The notes beneath the pieces were generated by a model. The model worked only from the letters and a program-made list of their open reading frames with translations, made no database searches and was not told the DNA's origin. From positions 98,049 to 162,048 of the forward strand of contig CAKUKI010000004.1 in NCBI GenBank assembly GCA_934662565.1: 64,000 bases of DNA. The letters run 5' to 3'. A program made the position numbers and the translations under genes. This stretch comes from an uncultured Elusimicrobiales bacterium (GTDB taxonomy: Bacteria; Elusimicrobiota; Elusimicrobia; Elusimicrobiales; Elusimicrobiaceae). Of the stretch, positions 9,769 through 25,690 are shown piece by piece (position 1 is the stretch's first letter; each line of letters starts with the position of its first letter).

Positions 9769-11137
9769 ATATAAAAAAGCGTGTGTGATTGGGTTAGGTA
9801 AAAGCGGCCGCGCCGTGGCGCAGCTATTGGCCGATAACGGCTATGAGGTGCTAATTAGCGAAGAATCCGCTATCAAAGAGCCCGCCTTATTAAAACTTCC
9901 GGCCGGCGTGCGGGTGGAAACCGGCGGACACACGCAGGCGGTGTTTCAAAGTGATTTTATAGTGAAAAGCCCGGGCATTTTCCCCAAAAGTCCGGTTTTG
10001 CTGGAATGTAAAAAACGCAAAATACCCGTGTTTAGTGAATTAGAAACCGCCTTGGCTTTTATGCCCAAAGGGGTGCGCGTGTTTGCGGTCACGGGCACGA
10101 ACGGCAAAACCACCACCACCGCTTTACTGGGCGAGATTTTGGAAGAACACTGCAAGCAAGCAGGCGGCAAAGCCCGCGTGTTTGTGTGCGGCAATATCGG
10201 TACTCCGGTATCTTTGATAGTGCCGGAATTAAAACCCGGGGATAATTTGGTGATAGAAGTTTCCAGCTATCAACTGGAAGACAGCACTTATTTCCGCCCG
10301 CAATATGCGTGCATATTAAATGTGACGCCCGACCATTTGGACCACCACGGCGGCTTAAAAAATTATATTAAAGCCAAATTGCGCATTTTTAAGAACCAGC
10401 GCGCAACCGATGTACTGGTTTTGAATGGGGCAGACACCGCCTGCGCCCAAGCGGCGCAAAAGGCCCCTAGCGAAGTGTTTGCGTTTTCCACCCACCCAAA
10501 ACACCTGCTCAAAACGGATGTATTTTTTGACGGGGATGAAATGATTTTTAGCGCCGGACACCAACTCCGCCCCCCCCATTTGAAAGGGATTCATAATGTG
10601 GAAAACGCCATGGCCGCCGCTTTAATGGCCTTGGCGGCGGGGGTTAGTGCACCCACCGTGCAACGCGTGTTTGACCGTTTTGCCGCCATGGAACACCGCA
10701 TAGAACAGTTTGCGTATCACAACGGGGTGATTTATATTAATGACTCCAAGGCCACCAATGTGGATTCTACCGTCACGGCCTTAAAATCTTTTCCGTCCGC
10801 CAAACATATTTGGCTTATTTTGGGCGGGCGCGATAAAGGGTTCCCTTATACGGAGCTTTTGCCGTACTTAAAAACGCGCTGCAAACAGGTTTTAATCATT
10901 GGGGAAGCTATGCCTCAAATAGAAAAAGACTTGTCCGGTGTGCCGCTTACGCGCTGTTTTGACCTTAAACGCGCGGCGGAATATGCGTTTGAAAATGCAA
11001 AAAAAGGCGATATTGTGCTCTTGTCTCCGGCGTGTGCCTCGTTTGACCAGTTTAAGAGTTTTGAACACCGCGGGCAGATGTTCAAACAAATCGTAAACGC
11101 ACTGATTTTTGCCGCCCGTACCGACGGCAAAAATTAG
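9752..11137 (+). CDS. murD: UDP-N-acetylmuramoylalanine--D-glutamate ligase
   Basis: Motifs VIGLGKSGRAVAQLL, AVTGTNGKTTTT, INDSKATN and LLSPACASFDQFKSFEHRG align along E. coli MurD. Overlaps murE by 17 nt. Confidence 0.85.
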   Translation: MFRKNKYKKACVIGLGKSGRAVAQLLADNGYEVLISEESAIKEPALLKLPAGVRVETGGHTQAVFQSDFIVKSPGIFPKSPVLLECKKRKIPVFSELETALAFMPKGVRVFAVTGTNGKTTTTALLGEILEEHCKQAGGKARVFVCGNIGTPVSLIVPELKPGDNLVIEVSSYQLEDSTYFRPQYACILNVTPDHLDHHGGLKNYIKAKLRIFKNQRATDVLVLNGADTACAQAAQKAPSEVFAFSTHPKHLLKTDVFFDGDEMIFSAGHQLRPPHLKGIHNVENAMAAALMALAAGVSAPTVQRVFDRFAAMEHRIEQFAYHNGVIYINDSKATNVDSTVTALKSFPSAKHIWLILGGRDKGFPYTELLPYLKTRCKQVLIIGEAMPQIEKDLSGVPLTRCFDLKRAAEYAFENAKKGDIVLLSPACASFDQFKSFEHRGQMFKQIVNALIFAARTDGKN

Positions 11138-11216
11138 TCCTCTTCCCTTTCCGGCGCAGAAATGTTATAAAGGAAGTATAAGGCTTTTTGAAATAGCCTC
11201 CCTACCGGAAAAGGTT

Positions 11217-12005
11217 ATGAAATTTACTAAAATACTGTTTGTTTTAGCTGTACTTTGTTTGTTTATCCCCGCTTATGCGGCCCCGCAGGGAGCCTCTTTG
11301 GCGGGGTTGCGCGCGGCGCTTATGCAAGCGCAAGGGCCGGTTTCCGCCACACTGATGCGGCGGGTGCTGTCTTATCGGGAAGGGGACGAAACCCTGTTGC
11401 TTTCCGCCAGCCGCCGCGGGGATATTCCTCTAATAAAAAAATTAGCTTGCACCTTGCCCGATTCCCGCGTATTTCAGCAAAAAGATTCTTTCAAGCGTAA
11501 TGCTTTCCACTTGGCGGCCAATTACCAAACGGCGTTGGAACTGATGAAAATGTATGCCTCTTTGCGTTTGCGTGAGGGCGCGGCGCAAGAGGATGTGTTT
11601 GATTCCAGCGCGTTCAAAACGGCACTGATTAACGCCGCAGACCGCCGCGGGGAAACCCCGCTGATGCAACAGGTTAAAGCCCGCCGCTATGAGGTAGCTT
11701 TCCTGTATTTAACAAAAAATGCGGATTTGTGCCGCAAAAGCGTATCCGGCGATACGGCCGTCCATTTGCTGGTGCGCCAATGTTCCGGCAACGCCCCCAA
11801 AGCGCTTGAGCTTTTGGAAAGTTTTTTGCGCGGGGAACCGTATGTGGTTTTTCTGCGGGACGGGGCCGGACGCACCCCCTTGGATTTAGCCAAAGCCTTG
11901 CGTGCCCGTATTGCGTATGAAAAAATAAAAGAAGTCCAACAGCAAGAAAGTGAAAGCCGCGCGCGCAATTTGCGCATTTTACTGCGTAATTTTTTTAATA
12001 GTTAA
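11217..12005 (+). CDS. secreted ankyrin-repeat protein
   Basis: Start placed at MKFTKILFVLAVLCLFIPAYAAP (signal peptide) rather than the 5'-extended ORF from 11109. ANK-like repeats GETPLMQQVKARRYEVAFLYLTKNADLCRKSVSGDTAVHLLV and RNAFHLAANYQTALELM. Confidence 0.55.
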   Translation: MKFTKILFVLAVLCLFIPAYAAPQGASLAGLRAALMQAQGPVSATLMRRVLSYREGDETLLLSASRRGDIPLIKKLACTLPDSRVFQQKDSFKRNAFHLAANYQTALELMKMYASLRLREGAAQEDVFDSSAFKTALINAADRRGETPLMQQVKARRYEVAFLYLTKNADLCRKSVSGDTAVHLLVRQCSGNAPKALELLESFLRGEPYVVFLRDGAGRTPLDLAKALRARIAYEKIKEVQQQESESRARNLRILLRNFFNS

Positions 12006-16568: not shown

Positions 16569-16574
16569 CCCAAA

Positions 16575-16604
16575 AGACCTACATGAAAAGTAGGTCCTTT
16601 ATTT
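16575..16604 (+). terminator. rho-independent terminator of coaD
   Basis: gacctac-atgaaaa-gtaggtc hairpin followed by CTTTATTT. Confidence 0.5.
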
Positions 16605-16606
16605 GC

Positions 16607-16636
16607 TTGTCTGTTTTTACTTTCCTTTATTATAAT
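16607..16636 (+). promoter_or_regulatory. candidate sigma70 promoter (TTGTCT-N18-TATAAT) about 300 nt upstream of the giant ORF
   Basis: Perfect TATAAT at 16631-16636 with a TTGTCT -35 at 16607-16612. It implies a 300-nt 5' leader. Confidence 0.3.
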
Positions 16637-16935
16637 ATAGCTGGAGCAGGTTAAAAGGAGATTTTTATGTGCTGTATAGAACGGGGGGTTCTTGAGCAAC
16701 CAAGCACGCCGCACGGGCTTATTTTGGTCCAAAGGGCGGGCGCCTTGCGGTGCTCTATCCCGCCGAGCAGCACATTGTTTAAGCTGTTTCAAAACCGTCG
16801 TTGGCTTAAGCCGCACGGAACCAATCTATGTTTTTGTATTCCTTTTTATAGGGCTGAAAATCTAGGACTCCTAGGTCTTTTGGCCCTGTTTTTTTATCTA
16901 ATTACTTGCCAAACTATGTTTAGGAGAACTGCCCT

Positions 16936-19900
16936 ATGATGAAAATATTGTCCCTACTTCTTAGTTTTACACTTATTTTTACCTCGGTAGCGCCGGCCGC
17001 TGCCCAGACGGCAGATGCCGCCGCCCGCCAAAAAGCGCGGGTTTCCAGCCATGTAGATGCGGGGGTGGACCGTGCGGTGCAATCCCAACGCGGCAAAAAA
17101 TTTGCGGTCAAAGATAAAGCGGCCGAAGTGCGTGCGGTAGTAAAAGCCATGGGGCAGGGCGGGAGTGAAAAATTATCGTACAAAGATTTTGCGGCCGAAT
17201 ACAAGAAAGAGATGAAAAATCTGCTTGTGCAAGTGATGGGAGAGGCCAAGACGGATGAGGAGCGCGCCTACATCAAACAGGTATGGACGGCGATGATGAC
17301 GGAGAAAGCGATTCGTGCGGAATATAAGCAATATCAAAAATTAGAGCAAGAATCGTTAAAAGAAGCGGAAAAAGAAGTCAACGCCTATTTACGGCGTTTA
17401 GGGCGCGAAGTGATGGCGATTTACAAAGTAAACAAACGGGAAGGCTTAGCGTTAATCAAAGAAGCCTTGCCTGTTTTTGCGTCAGTGGGAGCGATAGAAT
17501 TTAACGTAAAGAAAGAAGCGGCCGGAGTTTTACGCCAAGCGATAAAAGCGGGCGAAAAGAGCTGTGGCAGTGTCGGTTTTTTAACAGGGATAAAAGCGAA
17601 AGCAGGGTATAAAGACTCGTTAAACAGCCAAGTGAAAGGGTGCCAAAGCGTCTTAGAAGCGGCGTATGCGTTAAGCGTATTGGGAGCGGACGACTCCAAG
17701 GGTCAAAGCGCGGACGCGAAAGTATTGGGCGACCTGTTAGCCAAGGGCTACAACGGCTTAATGGGGCCGAGCTTGATTGTGATGGTCTCCAAGGGGCTGT
17801 TGGCTATGCATGGGGAACGCACCTTAACGGCAGAGCTGGTAAAGATTTCGCGTGATTTTCCGGACATAGGGTTATTTGGGAATGATTTTTCTTTTATTAG
17901 TGTAGCGGACTGGGTAAAAGCGTCCAGCATTATGAAGGGCGAATATGCTATGGGGATGGAATACAGCTTTTACAAAGGCGGCAAATACGCGAACTTAAAC
18001 AACGCGTGGTTAGATTTAGGTCAATATTTAGCGCAGGAAGCGAAAGCGGGCGACAAGAGTGCGGCGTATGTATTAAACACGGTGATGGAGGAAAGTGTTT
18101 GGTATGACAGCTACGGCAACCCCGGAGTTAAATTCAAACCGTTTGTGACGGGTGCGTTAGCCGGTGGGTATAGAATCAACAAACCGGGGCGCGCATATAC
18201 GCAACTGGACGGGAACGGCAAAACGCAGCATATAGACACGCGCAAAGAGTGGAACCGCGCGCTGGCGAAGATGAAAAAGCTGAACATGACGCAGAGCGGG
18301 TATTTTGCGTCTAGCTTGTATTATTCCGGCAAAGGGGATTTGGACCCGTACACGAACATTTATATTAATAACAAGCTGGTGGACGGCTACCGTTTAAGTG
18401 GGAGCCGCGCGCAGTTGAAAAACTTTGGCAAACGTGCGCGTCCGACGGCGGCCGAATTACAGCTGTATAAAGAATTGCAACACGCGCAGACGGTAGGGAA
18501 CGTGATAGACGTTGCGTTAGCGGTGTTCTTTATGGGCAAATTAGCCCTTAGCGCGGTAAAGATGGGCGTACAAGGCATCAAGAGCGGTGTACGCGTTTTG
18601 AAATTGGCGCGCAGCGGAGCGGCGGCGAACGGGTTAGGATTTGGTAAAAACTTCAGCCGTGTGATACGTTTAGGTCGTTTACAGAAATACGGGGTACATA
18701 GTGCAAAAGAGCTGCTGCGCAGCCGCTTATCAGGTGTAATGGGGACGCAGCACACGAAGATAGTAGGCGGCGTCAAGAATTTCAGACAAGCGGAAGCGGC
18801 CAAGAAAGCGGCGGATGCGAAACGCGCGGCGGCGGCCCAAGCCAAAGCGGATGCGGCTTTTGCGCAAACGGCGGAAGTGCGCTCCGTAGACGGGGTGGCG
18901 CATGTGATTCCGTCCGGCATGGATTTAGTAAGAGTCAACGGTCGGCCGGTACTCGTAAAGAAAGGGTTAAGCTTTAGTGAAATTGCCAAGAACTTTGGCG
19001 TAGCGGAAAGTGCGGTAAGCGAAGCGAAAGCGGGCAGCAGCATGGCGGCGGTAAGTGCGCCGAGATACACGACGAGTGGCGCGGCGGCCGCGGTGGAAGG
19101 CAAAGTACAGCCTGCGATGGGTCCGAAGCCTGTAGCGGCGGAAGTAGCGGAGCCAGTGGGCACGAAAGGCAGTGTGGTAAAGAGCCCGGTGCGGTATGTA
19201 CAGGTAGAAACGACCAACGCCTTAGGCAATAAAGTAATGTCATGGAAACCGGTGACGCCTGAGATAGCCAAGCCGAAACCGAGTTTTTGGAAAAATTTCA
19301 AAGAACGGTTTTTATGGAACTGGTATGGGCTGACAGATTTTGCCGGAAGTTTGGGACAGGCGGCGCAGAACGGGCGCAGCGGTGGCGTATTGGCCTTGGG
19401 GCTGAACATGGGCAGTGTGCCTATGCAAGCGGTCAAGGCGGAAGCAAGCTTACTGGCGCAAGGTGTAAAGACGGAACACGTTTTAACGCTCAAAAATATG
19501 GTGATGTACTCCGACGAATTAGCGAAGGTGGGTTGGAGTGGCGCCTCGTTTAGAGTAGGCACGCCCAATGTAGGTGGTATGCAGAATATGGGCCGGTTGC
19601 CGCAAGTGGGCAGCCCCTTTGGTGCAACGGGCCCCGCGTTAGGCATGCTGGGCACATTAAACGCGACGAACATTGCCAACAACTTGAGCGACTCCCGCGC
19701 CCAAGCCGCGCAATATACAGCCACGGCAGTGGCTCCGCGCAAATGGTGGCAACGCTGGTTTGGGGCCAAATCCTCCAATATGAATTTTAATGTTGCCGCC
19801 GTGAGTCAGGTGGCGCCATTGGCCCAAGCTGCGCAAGCGGCCGCCCCCGCGGAAGAACCGGCTGGGGAAATGTCGGACGCGGAACTGGGTGCCGATACGG

Positions 19901-22900
19901 AACACGGTTTTAAGATGACGTATGTGGACGAATCCGGCAAAGAGCAGGTGTTGCCTGTTAATGTAAAAATAGAAAAAGGCTTCAAAGCGGACGGCTATAA
20001 CCGCATTACGTTTACCCAAAATAATGTGGCTGAATTGCGCAATCAAGCTAAATCCCCCAAAACTATGGCGCATTTCTTTATGAAACTAAAAGCGGGGGAA
20101 TTACCGCGGTTAGTGGCAGCCGCCCAGCGGGAAAACATCCAACTGCAAATTAAGCTGGAATCTTCCCCCAATGTGGCGCACAAAACGGTAGAAGCACAGC
20201 TTTATGCCCAGAATGGTGCTATGTTGCCGGTTAAGGTGGAATTGCCCGCCAGCTTGCTTAAAAAAGGCTCCCGTTTGGTAATGACCGACGAAGGCCGTTT
20301 AGGAATGTTGGACGCGCAAGCCTTGGTGGCACAGGAGGCTTCCGGCCGGTTGGAAATGGCCAGCCCGCTCCATTCGCACTTGCACTTTTTGAATAATTAC
20401 TATGTGCGTATGCCCAAACACCAAATTGGCAACTGGGTTAAATTATTCAAAAATGCCCAACAGTATTTTGATATTTCCGTATTGCCTACGCAAAATAAAG
20501 CGCAGTTAGTAGTGCGGGATGTTTCCCTCACGAACGTCAGCTTGGGTAAAACTATGGCGCCTATTGCCAAAAAGCAGTTGGGTATGTCGGTAGACAATGC
20601 CACTACGCTGATGTTTATTATTAACTATATTTTGCCGGGCTTAGCCTCTTTGGTCAATCCGGTACTTAAAAAATATGGGGAAAAGAAACTGCTGACGATT
20701 GCGTTAGGAATGTCCGCCGCTGCCGGTTTATTGGCCACGGCGGCCGGATTCTACGGGTTTGTAGAAAATCAGGACGTTAGCAATTTTGACCGCGTGTTGT
20801 TTGTTTCCGGCCTTGTGTTAATGAGTGCCTCCAGCATTTTGAAACAGCTGGTGTGCAACATGTTAATCCGCGCCAACCGCGGGGAAGTGAGCGTCAGCGC
20901 GCCCAAAAAGGCGGCCCCGTCTGCGGCGGAAATTAAAGCGGCGGCAGAAGCGGATTGGAAAGATTTAACCCGCCGCGTAAAAGAATTTTTTACCAAGCCG
21001 TCTGATGTAAACTTAAAAGACGTGGTGCTTTATAACTTGAGCTTCGTGTTCAAAAACGTAGGCACCTTGGCGTTCTTGGCTTCCCCGTACGCTATTAACT
21101 GGGTGGTGGAACAGACCAGCGGGATTAATTTAGGGTTGGACTATTCCGTCAGCTTCCCCATTTACGCTTTATATAGCACTTGGGTCACCTACCGCGTCAT
21201 GCGCTCCAACTTGCGGGATGCTTATTCCGCCAAAAACTTGGAACAGAGCCAACGCGCCGTATTGAACCATGTGGAAAAAGCCGCACAAGCGTTGGAAGAA
21301 TTGTTCAAATTGGACCCGTCTTCTGCCCAGTTTACGGCTAAGGCCGAAGAAGTGACCCGCAAAATTAAAGAAAGTTTGGACGACTTGACCTTGGCTCAAG
21401 TAAAACTGGATAGCAAAGTAAAGAGCAAAGAAGCGTTTGAAGCCAATAAAGCGCAAGCCTTGGCCGATTTGGAAAAAGCGTTATCTGCCAGCGGCGCGCT
21501 GAATAAAGAACAAGTAAAACAAATTATGGCACAAGTGAACGAGGACTTTACCCACTTGGGCAAGAGCTTTGCCAGCTGGTGGAAAGTGCTCAAAGAAGCC
21601 AAAGGCGTAAAGGCGTTATCTTTGGCTATGACGTTAGCCACGGTACACGAGTTCATTTTATCTAGCTCGTTCGCTACCAGCATTAATAAGCTTGTGCCGG
21701 ATGGCGCTTACGCGAACTTCTTGGTGGCACTGTGCTTGTATGTACCGTTTATCGTTGGCCGCTTGGGCGGCAACGTGGTAGGCAAGCGCATTAGCTCCGG
21801 CAGTATGTACATTTTATGCTCTGCCCTGTCGGCTATCGGTACGGCTATGATGATTACCAACGTGGGCAATTTGGCTCCTACCATGGTGGGCGCGGTAATT
21901 GCCAGTTTGGGGGTGGGGAACTTCTTTACCCAAATGTATGACTACATTATGCAGAAACACCCCAAACTCCAGCGCGAAATTTCCGTCATCTTGGCGCTTA
22001 CCATGGCGGTTGCCGGTTTGGCTACGTTGCCGGCCTCGTACTTAACGTCTATTACTGAAAACTTGGACTTAATTTACGCCGGTGCCTGTTTAGGGTTGTC
22101 TTTGGTCCTTACTCCGGGGATGATGAAAGACTCTACCTTATTTAAGTTTGTCAATGGCCAAGTAAAAAAGTTGTTTGGCAAAAAAGGCAAAGCTGCCAAG
22201 GCCGCTAAAAAAGACAAACATAAAGGGGACGGCCCCGCAAGCGGGGCCGCAGGCAGCCCGAAAGCGGACGGCAAAAAACCAAACGCTCCCAAAACGGATG
22301 AACCTGAAACATTATCCCAAGTATTTATAAAGAACCAGCGAGGCGATATTATCGCCTCGCTGCAAGTTCCGGTAGCTCAAGCCGGATTCCAACTAAAACC
22401 TCTGCAAGAGGTTTTTATTTTGCCTAGCGGAGAAATGATTTTGCGCGAATATCGGGAGACCGCTTCCAAGAAAAAAGATGCGCATAATTATACGCAAATT
22501 GTGGTGCGGGATGATATCCGGCTGGAAAAATCCATGGGCAAAATAAAGGCCTCTGCGCTGAACCTTAAAAAAATAGGGGAAGGGCTTTTGCTGGCTAACA
22601 GCAAAATTTGGCCCATGTTTTTAATGTATGTTTTGTTGGGTATGAATAACGTATCCACCATTGTAGCCAACTTTGCCGAGGACCCCTTTCACATGAGCAA
22701 GTTTGAAATGTTTTTGCTTGGCAATATGGGCACACTGGCGGTGGGGTTATTTTCTTTGCCAATAGGTATTTTACAGGGTAAATTTAGCCGGAGGGCTATG
22801 TCCAATATCGGTATGCTTTCCATGATTGCCTCCTTTGCGGTGCCGTGGCTGGCTGGCTTAAACGGCACATTGGGCGACGCCACGGATTTGAAACGCGCCG

Positions 22901-23952
22901 CGTTGATGGTCAGCTTTGTGCTAATGGGCATTGGCGGAGCCTTTTTGGATGTGTCCTTAAAGCCCACGGTGTTGGCCGTTTCTAAAAAAGGCAATTACCA
23001 GCGTAATGTGGGCACACTGGCGGTATTTAAGCAAGTGTTTGGCAACTCTATGAACTATTTGCTCCCGCCGTTATTTTTGTGCGTGGCGGGGGCCGATTGG
23101 AGCGCGTTTTTCCCTGTCTATATGGCGGGCAGCGTGGTAGCTTTTATGCTGTATAATAAATTCCGCATGAAAGAGCAAACGTTGGATTCGGTGGCAAAGG
23201 CAAAAAAGAAATACGAAGTAAGTTTTAAGAGTATTTGGAACCTTTTTACAGGAAAGAATAAAAAATCCGAACTGGTGCGCAAAAGCGTGTATGCCAACAT
23301 TTTGCACGGGGCCAATATCGGCACGCTGGCTTTGTTTGTAAACAGTTTGATGAAAGAGCACTTTGAGGACCCTTCCGCCATGTGGCATTTGCCTTTCGGG
23401 TGGACGCTGGATTCGGACGCTTGGGTGCTGCCTTCTTTTGCGCTGTTTACACTGCCGATTATTTTTGGCCGTATGGCGGGCACGGCGCTTAGTAGCGGGT
23501 TTCATATCGGCAATAAACGCGTTGAGCCGCTTAATGCCGGTACACTGCTGCAAGCCAGCGCGTGGATAAGCCTGTTGGGAATTTTGCTGATTAATATGCC
23601 CAGTTGGCCCGCGCAAGAGCTGGGGGCCGTGCTGGCAGCCTTGGGCCTGACCAACTTCGCCCCGATTTTAACGGCCTTCCCCACGGATAAAACCCGCGAC
23701 GTTTCCAACGAGGTTTCCGCTCTGTTATCTTTTTCGTCTGTGTTTAGCGCGGCGTTTACGGTCACTTTCGGGCTATTGTTGGATGTGCTTGGTCCATGGA
23801 GCGCGGGGGCGTTTGGGTTGCTGGGGGTATTTTTTGCGTACTTAATCCACTTTGGTAAAGAAATCCGCCAAGGTAAGTTTGATGATTTGAAAGACCCTCA
23901 CGGCAACACGGCGGAAGCCGCCGAGGCGTACGAAGACCCTTTAACAGAATAG
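16936..23952 (+). CDS. giant (2338 aa) exported/membrane protein: signal peptide plus a ~1200-aa domain-less region plus two tandem MFS-transporter-like polytopic modules
   Basis: Uninterrupted 7017-nt ORF with AGGAGA 9 nt upstream of ATG. It opens with signal peptide MMKILSLLLSFTLIFTSVAPAAAQT. A hydrophobic segment lies near aa 520 (VIDVALAVFFMGKLALSAV). Gly/Ala-rich low-complexity stretches follow. From about nt 20575 there are roughly 12 TM segments with motif-A-like loops (PVLKKYGEKKLL, VGRLGGNVVGKRIS) and a ~150-aa coiled-coil central loop, followed by a Lys-rich linker (KKGKAAKAAKKDKHKGDG...). From about nt 22590 there is a second 12-TM module with GILQGKFSRRAM and PIIFGRMAGTAL motif-A-like loops. 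Confidence 0.85.
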   Translation: MMKILSLLLSFTLIFTSVAPAAAQTADAAARQKARVSSHVDAGVDRAVQSQRGKKFAVKDKAAEVRAVVKAMGQGGSEKLSYKDFAAEYKKEMKNLLVQVMGEAKTDEERAYIKQVWTAMMTEKAIRAEYKQYQKLEQESLKEAEKEVNAYLRRLGREVMAIYKVNKREGLALIKEALPVFASVGAIEFNVKKEAAGVLRQAIKAGEKSCGSVGFLTGIKAKAGYKDSLNSQVKGCQSVLEAAYALSVLGADDSKGQSADAKVLGDLLAKGYNGLMGPSLIVMVSKGLLAMHGERTLTAELVKISRDFPDIGLFGNDFSFISVADWVKASSIMKGEYAMGMEYSFYKGGKYANLNNAWLDLGQYLAQEAKAGDKSAAYVLNTVMEESVWYDSYGNPGVKFKPFVTGALAGGYRINKPGRAYTQLDGNGKTQHIDTRKEWNRALAKMKKLNMTQSGYFASSLYYSGKGDLDPYTNIYINNKLVDGYRLSGSRAQLKNFGKRARPTAAELQLYKELQHAQTVGNVIDVALAVFFMGKLALSAVKMGVQGIKSGVRVLKLARSGAAANGLGFGKNFSRVIRLGRLQKYGVHSAKELLRSRLSGVMGTQHTKIVGGVKNFRQAEAAKKAADAKRAAAAQAKADAAFAQTAEVRSVDGVAHVIPSGMDLVRVNGRPVLVKKGLSFSEIAKNFGVAESAVSEAKAGSSMAAVSAPRYTTSGAAAAVEGKVQPAMGPKPVAAEVAEPVGTKGSVVKSPVRYVQVETTNALGNKVMSWKPVTPEIAKPKPSFWKNFKERFLWNWYGLTDFAGSLGQAAQNGRSGGVLALGLNMGSVPMQAVKAEASLLAQGVKTEHVLTLKNMVMYSDELAKVGWSGASFRVGTPNVGGMQNMGRLPQVGSPFGATGPALGMLGTLNATNIANNLSDSRAQAAQYTATAVAPRKWWQRWFGAKSSNMNFNVAAVSQVAPLAQAAQAAAPAEEPAGEMSDAELGADTEHGFKMTYVDESGKEQVLPVNVKIEKGFKADGYNRITFTQNNVAELRNQAKSPKTMAHFFMKLKAGELPRLVAAAQRENIQLQIKLESSPNVAHKTVEAQLYAQNGAMLPVKVELPASLLKKGSRLVMTDEGRLGMLDAQALVAQEASGRLEMASPLHSHLHFLNNYYVRMPKHQIGNWVKLFKNAQQYFDISVLPTQNKAQLVVRDVSLTNVSLGKTMAPIAKKQLGMSVDNATTLMFIINYILPGLASLVNPVLKKYGEKKLLTIALGMSAAAGLLATAAGFYGFVENQDVSNFDRVLFVSGLVLMSASSILKQLVCNMLIRANRGEVSVSAPKKAAPSAAEIKAAAEADWKDLTRRVKEFFTKPSDVNLKDVVLYNLSFVFKNVGTLAFLASPYAINWVVEQTSGINLGLDYSVSFPIYALYSTWVTYRVMRSNLRDAYSAKNLEQSQRAVLNHVEKAAQALEELFKLDPSSAQFTAKAEEVTRKIKESLDDLTLAQVKLDSKVKSKEAFEANKAQALADLEKALSASGALNKEQVKQIMAQVNEDFTHLGKSFASWWKVLKEAKGVKALSLAMTLATVHEFILSSSFATSINKLVPDGAYANFLVALCLYVPFIVGRLGGNVVGKRISSGSMYILCSALSAIGTAMMITNVGNLAPTMVGAVIASLGVGNFFTQMYDYIMQKHPKLQREISVILALTMAVAGLATLPASYLTSITENLDLIYAGACLGLSLVLTPGMMKDSTLFKFVNGQVKKLFGKKGKAAKAAKKDKHKGDGPASGAAGSPKADGKKPNAPKTDEPETLSQVFIKNQRGDIIASLQVPVAQAGFQLKPLQEVFILPSGEMILREYRETASKKKDAHNYTQIVVRDDIRLEKSMGKIKASALNLKKIGEGLLLANSKIWPMFLMYVLLGMNNVSTIVANFAEDPFHMSKFEMFLLGNMGTLAVGLFSLPIGILQGKFSRRAMSNIGMLSMIASFAVPWLAGLNGTLGDATDLKRAALMVSFVLMGIGGAFLDVSLKPTVLAVSKKGNYQRNVGTLAVFKQVFGNSMNYLLPPLFLCVAGADWSAFFPVYMAGSVVAFMLYNKFRMKEQTLDSVAKAKKKYEVSFKSIWNLFTGKNKKSELVRKSVYANILHGANIGTLALFVNSLMKEHFEDPSAMWHLPFGWTLDSDAWVLPSFALFTLPIIFGRMAGTALSSGFHIGNKRVEPLNAGTLLQASAWISLLGILLINMPSWPAQELGAVLAALGLTNFAPILTAFPTDKTRDVSNEVSALLSFSSVFSAAFTVTFGLLLDVLGPWSAGAFGLLGVFFAYLIHFGKEIRQGKFDDLKDPHGNTAEAAEAYEDPLTE

Positions 23953-23970
23953 CCCTATTTCTTTGATATA

Positions 23971-23999
23971 AAAAACCCCGCTTAATGCGGGGTTTTTTT
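23971..23999. terminator. bidirectional rho-independent terminator
   Basis: aaaaaccccgc-ttaat-gcggggttttttt between the giant ORF (+) and sulP (-), which converge here. Confidence 0.65.
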
Positions 24000-24013: not shown

Positions 24014-25690
24014 TTATTCCGCAATAGAATGGCGGTCTTTTACAATGGATTCTGCCCGCATTAAGGAATGGTCAATGTTGCGGCAGAGGTGGTCTTCTCC
24101 CAGCAGTTTAATAAATCCGTACTGCTCCAAGGTTTTGCGTACATGTTTTTGCACATGGGATAAAATCAGTTGTACGCCGTCTTCTTTACAACGGTTGTAA
24201 ATGCGCTCTAAAGCGTGGTAGCCGGTGGCGTCTATGGCCGGTACACTGCGCATACGCAAAATGAGTACTTTGCAGTTTTTGTGGTGTTCCAGCGTTTCCA
24301 CAAACTGCGTGGCCGCCCCAAAAAAGAACGGACCGTTAATTTCATATACGCTGACGTGTTTGGCAATTACTTTGGTGTCAATGTCGTCTTTGCGGCGCAC
24401 TTCGTCCATTACGTCGTCATCCGTATTGGTAATTTGGTAGACGTCCGCCATGCGTTTCATAAAAAGTACCGCTGCCAGCACCAAGCCAAATTCAATGGCA
24501 ATCACCAAGTCAAATACTACCGTAAGCGTGAAGGTAGCCAACAAAATAAGCACATCCCCTAACGGAGCCTTAAACAAGGCCTTAAAACTGCGCCAGTCAC
24601 TCATGCGGTAAGACACTAAAAATAAAATAGCCGCCAAACTGGTCATGGGAATTCGCCCAATCCAACGCATCAGGCACAACATCATTAAAAATAAAAATAC
24701 GGCATGCGCCATACCGGCAACCGGCGTGCGGCCGCCGTTTTCTATATTGGCGGCGGTGCGGGCAATTGCGCCCGTGGCGGGCAAACCGCCAAACAGGCCG
24801 GAAGCCACATTGGCAATACCGGTGGCAACTAGTTCCATGTTGGAGCGGTGGCGCTTGCCAATCATACCGTCCGCCACGACGGCAGAGAGCAAACTTTCAA
24901 TCCCCGCCAGCAGGGCAATCGTCAGTGCCGGACGCATTAAATTTTGGATAGTATCCCAGCTAACCGCGTCCGGTAAGTGCGGCATAACCAGCGTGCTGTC
25001 CACCGCGCCGAACGTGCTGGTAATAGTGGGCACGTTTAGCCCCGTCACCCCTACTAAAACGGCGGTGATTAACAAGGCTGCCAAAGAGCCCGGAAATGCC
25101 TTCCATTTTTTAGGCCAAAAAAGAATAATTGCCAAGGTGAGCAGTCCCACCGCCAAGGCCGCCCAGTTTATTTGCCCCAAACTGTGGAAATACAAACCCC
25201 ATTTGGCAAAAAAACCGGAGGGAATGTTGGTTAGTCCCAAGCCCAAAAAATCGTTAATTTGGGTAGAAAAAAGCACCACGGCAATCCCGCTGGTAAATCC
25301 GGTTGTCACGGGGTAGGGAATAAATTTAATAAAACTGCCAAATTTGCATATCCCCATAAAAATTAGAAAAATCCCCGCCATGATAGTAGCGCTCAGTAAT
25401 CCGGCCAAGCCGTATTGCTGGATAATGCCGTATACAATTACCACAAACGCGCCCGTAGGCCCGCCAATTTGCACGCGGCTCCCCCCAAAAAGGGAAATAA
25501 TAAATCCGGCCACAATGGCGGTGATGAGGCCTTTTTCCGGCGTGACGCCGGAGGCAATAGCCAAGGCAATAGAAAGCGGCAACGCAATACACGCTACCAC
25601 CAGTCCGGCGCTTAAATCTTTTAAGACGCGGCGGGAGGAAAACTCCTCCGGACGGTTTTGAATCAGAGTAAGTAATTTGGGTCTTAACAT
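24014..25690 (-). CDS. SulP-family anion transporter with C-terminal STAS domain
   Basis: 558 aa with a polytopic SulP core (…GPTGAFVVIVYGII…) and a C-terminal STAS domain (ILRMRSVPAIDATGYHALERI). Confidence 0.85.
   Translation of the reverse strand: MLRPKLLTLIQNRPEEFSSRRVLKDLSAGLVVACIALPLSIALAIASGVTPEKGLITAIVAGFIISLFGGSRVQIGGPTGAFVVIVYGIIQQYGLAGLLSATIMAGIFLIFMGICKFGSFIKFIPYPVTTGFTSGIAVVLFSTQINDFLGLGLTNIPSGFFAKWGLYFHSLGQINWAALAVGLLTLAIILFWPKKWKAFPGSLAALLITAVLVGVTGLNVPTITSTFGAVDSTLVMPHLPDAVSWDTIQNLMRPALTIALLAGIESLLSAVVADGMIGKRHRSNMELVATGIANVASGLFGGLPATGAIARTAANIENGGRTPVAGMAHAVFLFLMMLCLMRWIGRIPMTSLAAILFLVSYRMSDWRSFKALFKAPLGDVLILLATFTLTVVFDLVIAIEFGLVLAAVLFMKRMADVYQITNTDDDVMDEVRRKDDIDTKVIAKHVSVYEINGPFFFGAATQFVETLEHHKNCKVLILRMRSVPAIDATGYHALERIYNRCKEDGVQLILSHVQKHVRKTLEQYGFIKLLGEDHLCRNIDHSLMRAESIVKDRHSIAE

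Follow-up and report, generated by a model that had tools for sequence, protein, structure and literature searches.

A 2338-residue Elusimicrobiota protein with two MFS modules behind a predicted periplasmic head

A stretch of 64,000 nucleotides (nt) on contig CAKUKI010000004.1 of an uncultured Elusimicrobiales bacterium (hereafter the window, to whose whole length all coordinates refer) holds a 7-kb open reading frame (ORF) among housekeeping genes. The original prediction, read from the sequence alone, described its product as a signal-peptide-led novel domain of 1200 amino acids (aa) fused to two tandem transporter modules of the major facilitator superfamily (MFS). Such a locus raises the question of whether a single gene of this size is real and, if so, what its parts are, where they came from and what the protein could do. 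On balance, we favor the view that the product, P0001, would be a two-unit secondary transporter, one very large cytoplasmic-membrane protein built from lineage-specific cassettes.

One gene and its modules

The gene was found, as predicted, to be one uninterrupted ORF of 2338 aa on the forward strand (16936..23952), with an ATG start and an AGGAGA Shine-Dalgarno sequence upstream. The supposed housekeeping neighborhood is also borne out: the window is ordinary chromosome carrying uvrB, murE, murD, secA, lnt, smc, ptsI and lepA, and the GC content at the gene (0.49-0.54) matches that of the remainder. The gene occupies a slot, HD-coaD-(gene)-sulP-PHP-NifU-SH3-...-secA, whose synteny is maintained in three lineages, which together with the GC content agrees with the earlier view that the gene is native. 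We take it as a true gene of the chromosome of a gut Candidatus Avelusimicrobium / Elusimicrobiaceae bacterium. The protein can be divided into the following parts, where TM stands for transmembrane and pLDDT for the AlphaFold confidence score.

16936..17001, forward strand: signal peptide, aa 1-22 (sequence reading; AxA cleavage motif)
17002..18501, forward strand: all-alpha, predicted periplasmic "head", aa 23-522, with the Cys210/Cys236 pair
18502..18558, forward strand: TM anchor, aa 523-541, out to in (Kyte-Doolittle hydropathy 2.04)
18559..19383, forward strand: basic Ala/Lys-rich connector ("MID"), aa 542-816, predicted cytoplasmic from composition and net charge
19384..19440, forward strand: weakly hydrophobic segment GVLALGLNMGSVPMQAV, aa 817-835, candidate second pass, in to out (hydropathy 1.22)
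19441..19890, forward strand: low-complexity Ala/Gln/Gly-rich spacer, aa 836-985, within which the paralogue-shared tract ends (nt 19711)
19891..20493, forward strand: beta-rich pre-A domain, aa 986-1186 (AF2 strands; unit residues 29-220, pLDDT ~70-89)
20494..22119, forward strand: MFS module A, aa 1187-1728, 11 clear TM helices
21205-21606, forward strand: four-helix, predicted cytoplasmic insert in the TM6-TM7 loop of module A, aa 1424-1557, ~134 aa (structure model)
22120..22305, forward strand: Lys-rich low-complexity linker, aa 1729-1790, predicted cytoplasmic (16 K+R in 62 aa)
22306..22614, forward strand: small pre-B domain, aa 1791-1893, predicted cytoplasmic; found directly before the B-type MFS in P0006, P0042 and P0056
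22615..23856, forward strand: MFS module B, aa 1894-2307, canonical 12-TM (MFS_1 end to end; hydropathy and Pfam register)
23857..23952, forward strand: acidic C-terminal tail, aa 2308-2338, and stop codon

Could the length be an artefact of assembly or annotation, in which ordinary genes were joined by a frameshift or as a chimera? The gene's 5' 2.77 kb form a dispersed, near-identical repeat at which other assemblies, including those of related metagenome-assembled genomes (MAGs), break inside the gene at about aa 905-925, and chimeric joins are conceivable in principle. However, the full-length ORF and the junction of head and unit A are found in many independent assemblies. The window protein falls in a protein cluster of 16 sequences, and those listed include 11 with 2338 aa and two with 2335 aa. 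The exact cluster representative is among the listed members and matches the window protein at 99.8% identity. At an identity of at least 90%, the 2338-aa form occurs in at least ten other metagenome assemblies, in contigs of up to 246 kb. A syntenic orthologue, P0002 (locus L009), has the same architecture and the same neighbors at 86% nucleotide and 89% aa identity. In MAG contigs of Candidatus Avelusimicrobium faecicola (91% aa identity) and of an "uncultured Elusimicrobiales" (66%), aa 905-2338 form an uninterrupted frame, and the continuity of unit A and unit B holds in four lineages. The assignment of the organism comes from these contigs as well. The frameshift or in-frame stop that the original prediction had named as its possible undoing is not seen in any of this material.

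The ratio of non-synonymous to synonymous changes (dN/dS, Nei-Gojobori) between the giant gene and its L009 orthologue is 0.098 for the whole gene and lies within 0.05-0.19 in all twelve segments compared, among them the linkers; the Lys-rich linker has the highest value (0.19), and the head (0.08) and the four-helix insert (0.05) have lower ones. All junction segments are thus under purifying selection. The same length in independent assemblies, this selection and the retention of A and B together at 66% identity argue against an artefact, the probability of which we consider negligible. They support a genuine ORF that would be translated as one unit and is under strong purifying selection throughout.

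The MFS units, the N-terminal region and membrane topology

Hydropathy shows a signal-like segment at the N-terminus and, in the C-terminal half, TM helices grouped at aa 1219-1728 and at aa 1894-2307. The Pfam family MFS_1 (PF07690) matches the whole protein with 50.4 bits (cutoff 33.4, E 2e-13) and the last 458 aa with E 5e-12. Module B alone scores 45.7 bits over positions 2-321/345 of the 347 in the profile. Module A alone stays below the cutoff with 17-19 bits (E 0.003-0.0009). Five of eight unit A homologues match MFS_1 (best E 3e-7), an hhalign comparison of the unit A and unit B profiles reaches a probability of 96.4% (E 1e-9) with most of the alignment in TM2-4 and TM8-11, and module A has the full-length MFS geometry. 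Both C-terminal modules are MFS proteins with the two-bundle fold; a placement of the C-terminal ~1100 aa in a non-transporter family, the other outcome that could have overturned the original prediction, did not emerge. Scans of the whole protein with Pfam, NCBIfam and PADLOC and of five segments with Pfam returned only MFS_1 besides weak noise (RDR6_2nd, Mo25, HTH_23, Spectrin, SAVED), and PDB sequence searches with module A and module B gave nothing significant.

The two modules are not equal. Module B has the expected 12 helices, but module A, which had also been taken as a 12-TM unit, has 11 clear ones; its TM1 equivalent QLVVRDVSLTNVSLGKTMAPI, aligned with TM1 of module B, is degenerate and is not hydrophobic in any family member. 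Invariant polar or charged residues lie within the membrane in unit A (N in TM2, K/N in TM5, E in TM7, N/Q in TM10), and its TM8-9 loop reads GRLGGN...R. The 150-aa coiled coil expected in the central loop of this module is a real helical insert, but of ~134 aa and modeled as four helices. Of the two elements that were said to join the modules, the Lys-rich linker is present as described, and the small soluble domain exists as a conserved unit, pre-B, though with ~100 rather than 90 aa. It always lies ahead of B-type MFS modules in relatives, and it has no Pfam match.

The motif A consensus of MFS proteins, G-x-L-a-D-r-x-G-r-k-x-x-l, lies in the TM2-3 and/or TM8-9 loop. Four loops of this kind (PVLKKYGEKKLL, GRLGGNVVGKRIS, GILQGKFSRRAM and IFGRMAGTAL) retain the Gly and basic positions, with the conserved Asp absent in all four. 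The distribution of Lys and Arg follows the positive-inside rule, with 20 such residues inside and 2 outside in module A and 24 inside and 3 outside in module B, which would place the motif-A loops and the central loops in the cytoplasm.

The region ahead of the MFS units is rich in Ala, Gly, Lys and Leu. Its N-terminus, MMKILSLLLSFTLIFTSVAPAAA followed by Q after the cleavage point, has on reading the sequence the n/h/c layout of a signal peptidase I substrate, with Ala at -3 and -1, in keeping with the Sec signal peptide noted before. The form M.KLLSLVLSFTLIFTSVAPSYAQA is almost invariant family-wide (N-termini of P0001-P0142), and in an exhaustive search dozens of otherwise unrelated Elusimicrobiota proteins match the head profile only at positions 1-40. 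This signal peptide may direct export or sorting in a way specific to the lineage, or it may offer a handle for recombination.

The head was modeled by AlphaFold (aa ~60-520) as an all-alpha, solenoid-like structure with a core pLDDT of 70-94. A Foldseek search with the model found nothing below E 0.02, and a PDB sequence search with the head profile found nothing significant. Cys210 and Cys236 are invariant in the family and are the only Cys residues in the first 1306 aa. The internal hydrophobic helix placed near aa 520 appears as a hydropathy peak at aa 523-541, and a hydrophobic helix recurs at this position in the family members examined. K+R residues number one in the 20 aa before it and five in the 25 aa after it. 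The AxA signal peptide, the invariant Cys pair and the basic cluster after this TM segment argue firmly that the head is exposed in the periplasm.

The connector is a module common to many family members; Pfam gave only a weak HTH_23 match for it (aa 542-816, E 0.12). The segment GVLALGLNMGSVPMQAV is conserved, with basic residues upstream, in 16 relatives, so that the helix near aa 520, thought to be the only internal one, has at least a weakly hydrophobic companion at aa 817-835. The pre-A domain carries invariant GF, YNR and VRLPK motifs and always lies directly before A-type MFS cassettes; searches with its profile stayed within the family and matched nothing in the PDB. Homology between pre-A and pre-B is not claimed, as the hhalign alignment of the two has only low column confidence. 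No Pfam or NCBIfam family matches aa 1-1200, and with PDB and Foldseek likewise silent, the statement that these residues have no described family stands. They do not constitute one 1200-aa domain, however, but a chain of distinct modules (signal peptide, head, TM anchor, connector, pre-A) that probably lie on both sides of the membrane.

An antisense ORF of 463 aa (18387-19778, reverse strand) is contained in the Ala/Gly-rich portion of the gene, where the sequence is GC-skewed (skew 0.21 at 18-20 kb); it most probably arises as an artefact of that composition.

Two topologies can be drawn. In the first, everything from aa 542 to module A would be cytoplasmic and the degenerate TM1 would still cross the membrane, an arrangement that fits the giant protein taken alone. 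In the second, which we favor, aa 817-835 would form a weak second pass, pre-A would be periplasmic and module A would be an 11-TM unit starting outside. The preference comes from A-type relatives. In the short-head proteins P0142, P0136, P0091 and P0122, the stretch from the signal peptide to the first strong cassette helix is devoid of hydrophobic segments, which would make the pre-domain of P0142 periplasmic, and P0107 and P0126 have two strong hydrophobic segments in the region upstream of the cassette. Zero or two passes imply an even number of passes upstream of the A cassette, and in the giant protein GVLALGLNMGSVPMQAV is the sole candidate for the second; we infer this role for aa 817-835 from that parity. 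Module A would then probably be a new, N-out 11-TM variant of the MFS fold. Both topologies predict a cytoplasmic location for the end of module A, for the Lys-rich linker and pre-B that follow it, and for the two termini of module B.

Family, cassettes and exchange between paralogues

The head family was delimited with an alignment of the first 625 aa of ten homologues, the window protein as first row (alignment A1), in an exhaustive profile search of 1.84 billion representatives. The search returned 132 cluster representatives, with 44 below E 1e-30, most of them 900-3400 aa long. Every match with a named organism belongs to Elusimicrobiota (Ca. Avelusimicrobium, Elusimicrobiaceae, Elusimicrobium simillimum), and further homologue searches with alignments A1 and A4 added just 3 and 1 proteins, respectively. 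The window protein shows all the marks of this family: the conserved signal peptide, the all-alpha domain of ~500 aa, the invariant Cys pair, and the TM segment followed by the basic motif R-L-G-R-L-Q-K-Y-G.

A jackhmmer module map of the 142 collected proteins distinguishes four cassette types behind the head, namely A, B, C (P0008-10) and "P3", the last with a long helical C-terminus. Architectures were counted over the 97 representatives of at least 800 aa:

head plus MFS-like cassette: 60 of 97
head only: 34 of 97
cassette without a long head: 3 of 97
both A and B cassettes: 2 of 97, P0001 and P0002 only

The original prediction of an architecture unlike any described family holds for the unmatched N-terminal 1200 aa, but the protein does not stand alone: its paralogous family is modular and restricted to Elusimicrobiota. 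Relatives already have entries at NCBI, namely WP_458402245.1, "MFS transporter [Candidatus Avelusimicrobium sp.]", WP_423971352.1 / MGB2579344.1 (Elusimicrobium simillimum) and several named "hypothetical protein [Elusimicrobiaceae bacterium]". These relatives share the head family and MFS-like cassettes with the giant protein but are single-cassette, and none has been characterised. Literature searches on the family, on Elusimicrobia MFS or giant proteins and on Elusimicrobium simillimum found nothing relevant.

How the parts came together is indicated by a second locus. The 5' part of the giant gene is a tract homogenised with a paralogue:

16942..19711, forward strand: 2.77 kb, aa 3-925, 97.5% DNA identity to L005 10010-12767 (P0003 locus)

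The same tract is only 86% identical to the syntenic orthologue in L009. The surroundings of P0003 are unrelated to those of the giant gene (FUR, rubrerythrin and AMP-binding on one side, DUF2339 and pyruvate kinase on the other), and P0003 and P0004 are orthologues of each other at this second locus. The heads pair by lineage, not by locus: at the protein level P0001-P0003 are 97-99% and P0002-P0004 96-98% identical, and the cross pairs 82-91%. In a related MAG the head sits on a separate contig with coverage of 39 vs 15 (2.6-fold). The tract identity and the lineage-wise pairing of heads point to recent exchange of sequence between paralogous loci by gene conversion, and by this comparison the 5' tract is evidently under concerted evolution, with gene conversion between the paralogues ongoing.

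The 3' part has a different history. A more distant Elusimicrobia genome carries in the same slot P0142 (L011 8001-11846, 1281 aa), which has a signal peptide, a short head, pre-A and MFS-A only. Unit B of the giant protein is ~38% identical to its nearest stand-alone relatives P0006 and P0042, which suggests that the addition of B is old. The comparisons show the giant gene as a mosaic that appears to have been assembled from shuffled paralogue parts. The locus would first have carried a one-module, A-type gene; the head, TM anchor and connector would then have been acquired from a paralogue, and a B-type cassette would have been joined at the 3' end. Such accretion of cassettes, with gene conversion between paralogues, is a natural example of how a giant multidomain membrane protein can be assembled.

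The same features could suggest a variable surface or conflict system, in which homogenised 5' parts and swapped 3' cassettes would serve antigenic or phage-receptor variation or the role of a polymorphic effector. The near-identical 2.77-kb tract common to paralogues, the widely varying C-terminal cassettes and enzyme domains, and the multi-copy, lineage-restricted nature of the family speak for it. However, the variable parts are integral-membrane and cytoplasmic rather than exposed, and dN/dS is low everywhere, the head included (0.08), which gives no hint of diversifying selection. The scans found neither a small gene of the immunity type nor a toxin domain, and PADLOC had no match. Among the genes called or scanned beside the locus there are no inverted repeats or recombinase genes, although repeats were not searched directly. 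We regard this explanation as very improbable. A polymorphic toxin or contact-dependent effector in the strict sense was rejected, given C-terminal parts that are polytopic membrane modules and the lack of a toxin domain, a PADLOC match or a small downstream gene.

Possible function and comparison with known systems

MFS carriers are usually stand-alone 12-TM proteins. The nearest solved folds to the present units within the superfamily (PF07690) are those of E. coli SotB (6kki), FLVCR1/2, SPNS2 and MdfA, at 8-14% sequence identity. The giant protein differs from the usual MFS protein in several respects. It lacks the motif-A Asp; module A is without a hydrophobic TM1 and carries the 134-aa helical insert; a family-specific extramembrane domain lies ahead of each module; and a periplasmic head of ~500 aa is fused to the whole. 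E. coli YajR is an MFS protein with a C-terminal YAM domain (3wdo), and the TRAP/TTT systems, binding-protein-dependent secondary transporters, offer a functional comparison. No relation of the head and pre-domains of the giant protein to YAM or to the folds of periplasmic binding proteins was detected, and they would be tethered by a TM segment or segments of their own.

A closer precedent is NarK of Paracoccus denitrificans, a NarK1-NarK2 fusion with 24 TM helices in which two different MFS permeases form one polypeptide (PMC5217062). The giant protein resembles it in having two MFS domains in one chain, so that coupled or complementary transport would not be without precedent. Unlike NarK, a member of the nitrate/nitrite-porter family encoded in a nar operon, the giant protein shows neither membership of that family nor a nar/nas gene context; it also has 1200 extra N-terminal residues and a 165-aa linker plus domain between the modules.

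With this precedent in mind, the two dissimilar permeases of the favored two-unit transporter would handle different substrates or work in different directions, by analogy with the NarK1-NarK2 fusion. Substrate capture, or docking of the permease to a partner in the envelope, could fall to the tethered periplasmic head and pre-domain, and the cytoplasmic insert, linker and small domain could regulate gating. A more elaborate form of this proposal, which we consider improbable, is a class of receptor-coupled secondary transporters peculiar to Elusimicrobiota, in which the tethered solenoid and the beta-rich domain would trap substrates and pass them to a dedicated MFS unit, as in a fused counterpart of binding-protein-dependent carriers, and heads and cassettes would be re-assorted by gene conversion to change specificity, two steps being coupled here in one 25-pass polypeptide.

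Several points weigh against the two-unit transporter. The absence of the motif-A Asp means that classical MFS gating may be altered, and the NCBIfam scan matched no MFS subfamily. With a mean pLDDT of 64, the model of the head is moderate in quality. The segment at aa 817-835 is only marginally hydrophobic (1.22), and if it is not a TM segment, pre-A would be cytoplasmic and the degenerate TM1 must cross the membrane. About one third of the head-bearing relatives have no recognisable MFS cassette, so the head is not strictly dependent on a permease. Finally, neighbors differ at every paralogous locus, with no gene neighborhood common to these loci and no conserved partner gene.

Some of these points also suit the main rival, a sensor or scaffold of the "transceptor" kind, in which non-transporting MFS modules would act as ligand-sensing or anchoring platforms that link the head to cytoplasmic domains, either for signaling or to organise envelope proteins. 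The missing motif-A Asp in both modules and the heads without MFS cassettes would be compatible with such a role, as would the strong constraint on the large cytoplasmic additions (dN/dS 0.05 in the four-helix insert). Moreover, relatives carry extra C-terminal cytoplasmic enzyme domains on the same cassettes: a HAD hydrolase in P0013 and P0018, a trypsin-like domain in P0049 and, in the B-type P0056, two Kdo/WaaP-type kinase-like domains with HxD...N / LIDFE motifs. Against this stand the invariant intramembrane polar residues and the full-length MFS geometry, as expected of an active carrier. No signaling domain (kinase, HAMP, GGDEF, HTH or other output domain) was found above threshold in the giant protein with Pfam and NCBIfam, and no regulator gene is consistently adjacent. 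The dedicated transport, tethering or signaling machine suggested in the original prediction gains no support from a signaling domain or a conserved partner gene. We consider a sensor or scaffold role unlikely, though a serious contender.

The domains of P0056 bear on another alternative. LtaA, Spns, MFSD2A and LplT are MFS proteins that move lipid-linked or amphipathic substrates, and the giant protein could be part of an envelope-lipid or glycolipid flippase complex, its MFS modules moving lipid-linked or amphipathic precursors and its head passing them to the outer layers. The fusion of a B-type relative to domains of the lipopolysaccharide-kinase family (Kdo/WaaP) would agree with this, as would a window neighborhood rich in envelope genes (murE, murD, lnt, secA and a PMT_2 glycosyltransferase). 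However, the Kdo/WaaP Pfam match may mirror a generic protein-kinase-like fold, the nearby envelope genes are housekeeping genes that are not conserved beside the paralogues, and the fold neighbors are non-discriminating. A flippase is, in our judgment, decidedly improbable. A tripartite MFS efflux pump of the EmrAB-TolC type was rejected, since no adaptor or outer-membrane factor genes adjoin the giant gene or its orthologues; a MacB/OEP cluster does adjoin the paralogue P0009, convergent to it, and is not conserved elsewhere.

The core of the two-unit transporter that we favor belongs to the MFS, and the findings establish no new mechanism. MFS membership is secure, a tandem MFS fusion was known before, and relatives already bore the NCBI label "MFS transporter"; the family-level architecture, the double cassette and the mosaic origin with ongoing gene conversion are new. 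The head, pre-A, pre-B and the four-helix insert are four conserved modules without a Pfam model or structural relative, and two divergent MFS units are fixed behind ~1200 uncharacterised residues in a family confined to a little-studied phylum of the gut. Should the head and pre-domains turn out to bind substrates or partners, they would represent a new way to equip secondary transporters with tethered receptors.

The flanks of the gene hold two further features:

16569..16935, forward strand: 5' leader / intergenic region, 367 nt, after the coaD terminator (hairpin 16576-16596; terminator and promoter scan)
23970-23999, no strand assigned: bidirectional intrinsic terminator A6-CCCCGC-TTAAT-GCGGGG-T7, between the giant gene and the convergent sulP (sequence reading)

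The terminator hairpin is the one that the gene had been thought to share with sulP, whose convergent reading frame has its stop at 24014. The leader includes a promoter-like TTGTCT-18-TATAAT (16607-16636) and is 96% identical to its L009 counterpart, above the 86% of the coding region. Two patches of its DNA, 16626-16669 and 16843-16895, are still recognisable in the distant L011, and the second contains the palindrome CTAGGAcTCCTAG and a T-run. The predicted RNA fold of the leader has a z of -2.4. An Rfam scan for a riboswitch or other known RNA gave only weak sub-threshold terminator-like matches, all at the 3' end (23970-23999). The leader is possibly a cis-regulatory element. A 90-aa ORF at 16667..16939, which overlaps the ATG of the giant gene by 4 nt and is annotated as a gene in public assemblies, was rejected as a gene: it shows 15 non-synonymous vs 10 synonymous codon changes against the close orthologue, and its protein is not conserved in L011.

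Elsewhere in the window, a gene for an ankyrin-repeat protein (11109-12005) lies immediately after murD, and ankyrin-repeat genes are also found in L009 and L013. Such genes are uncommon in bacteria, and those observed here may be relevant to host association.

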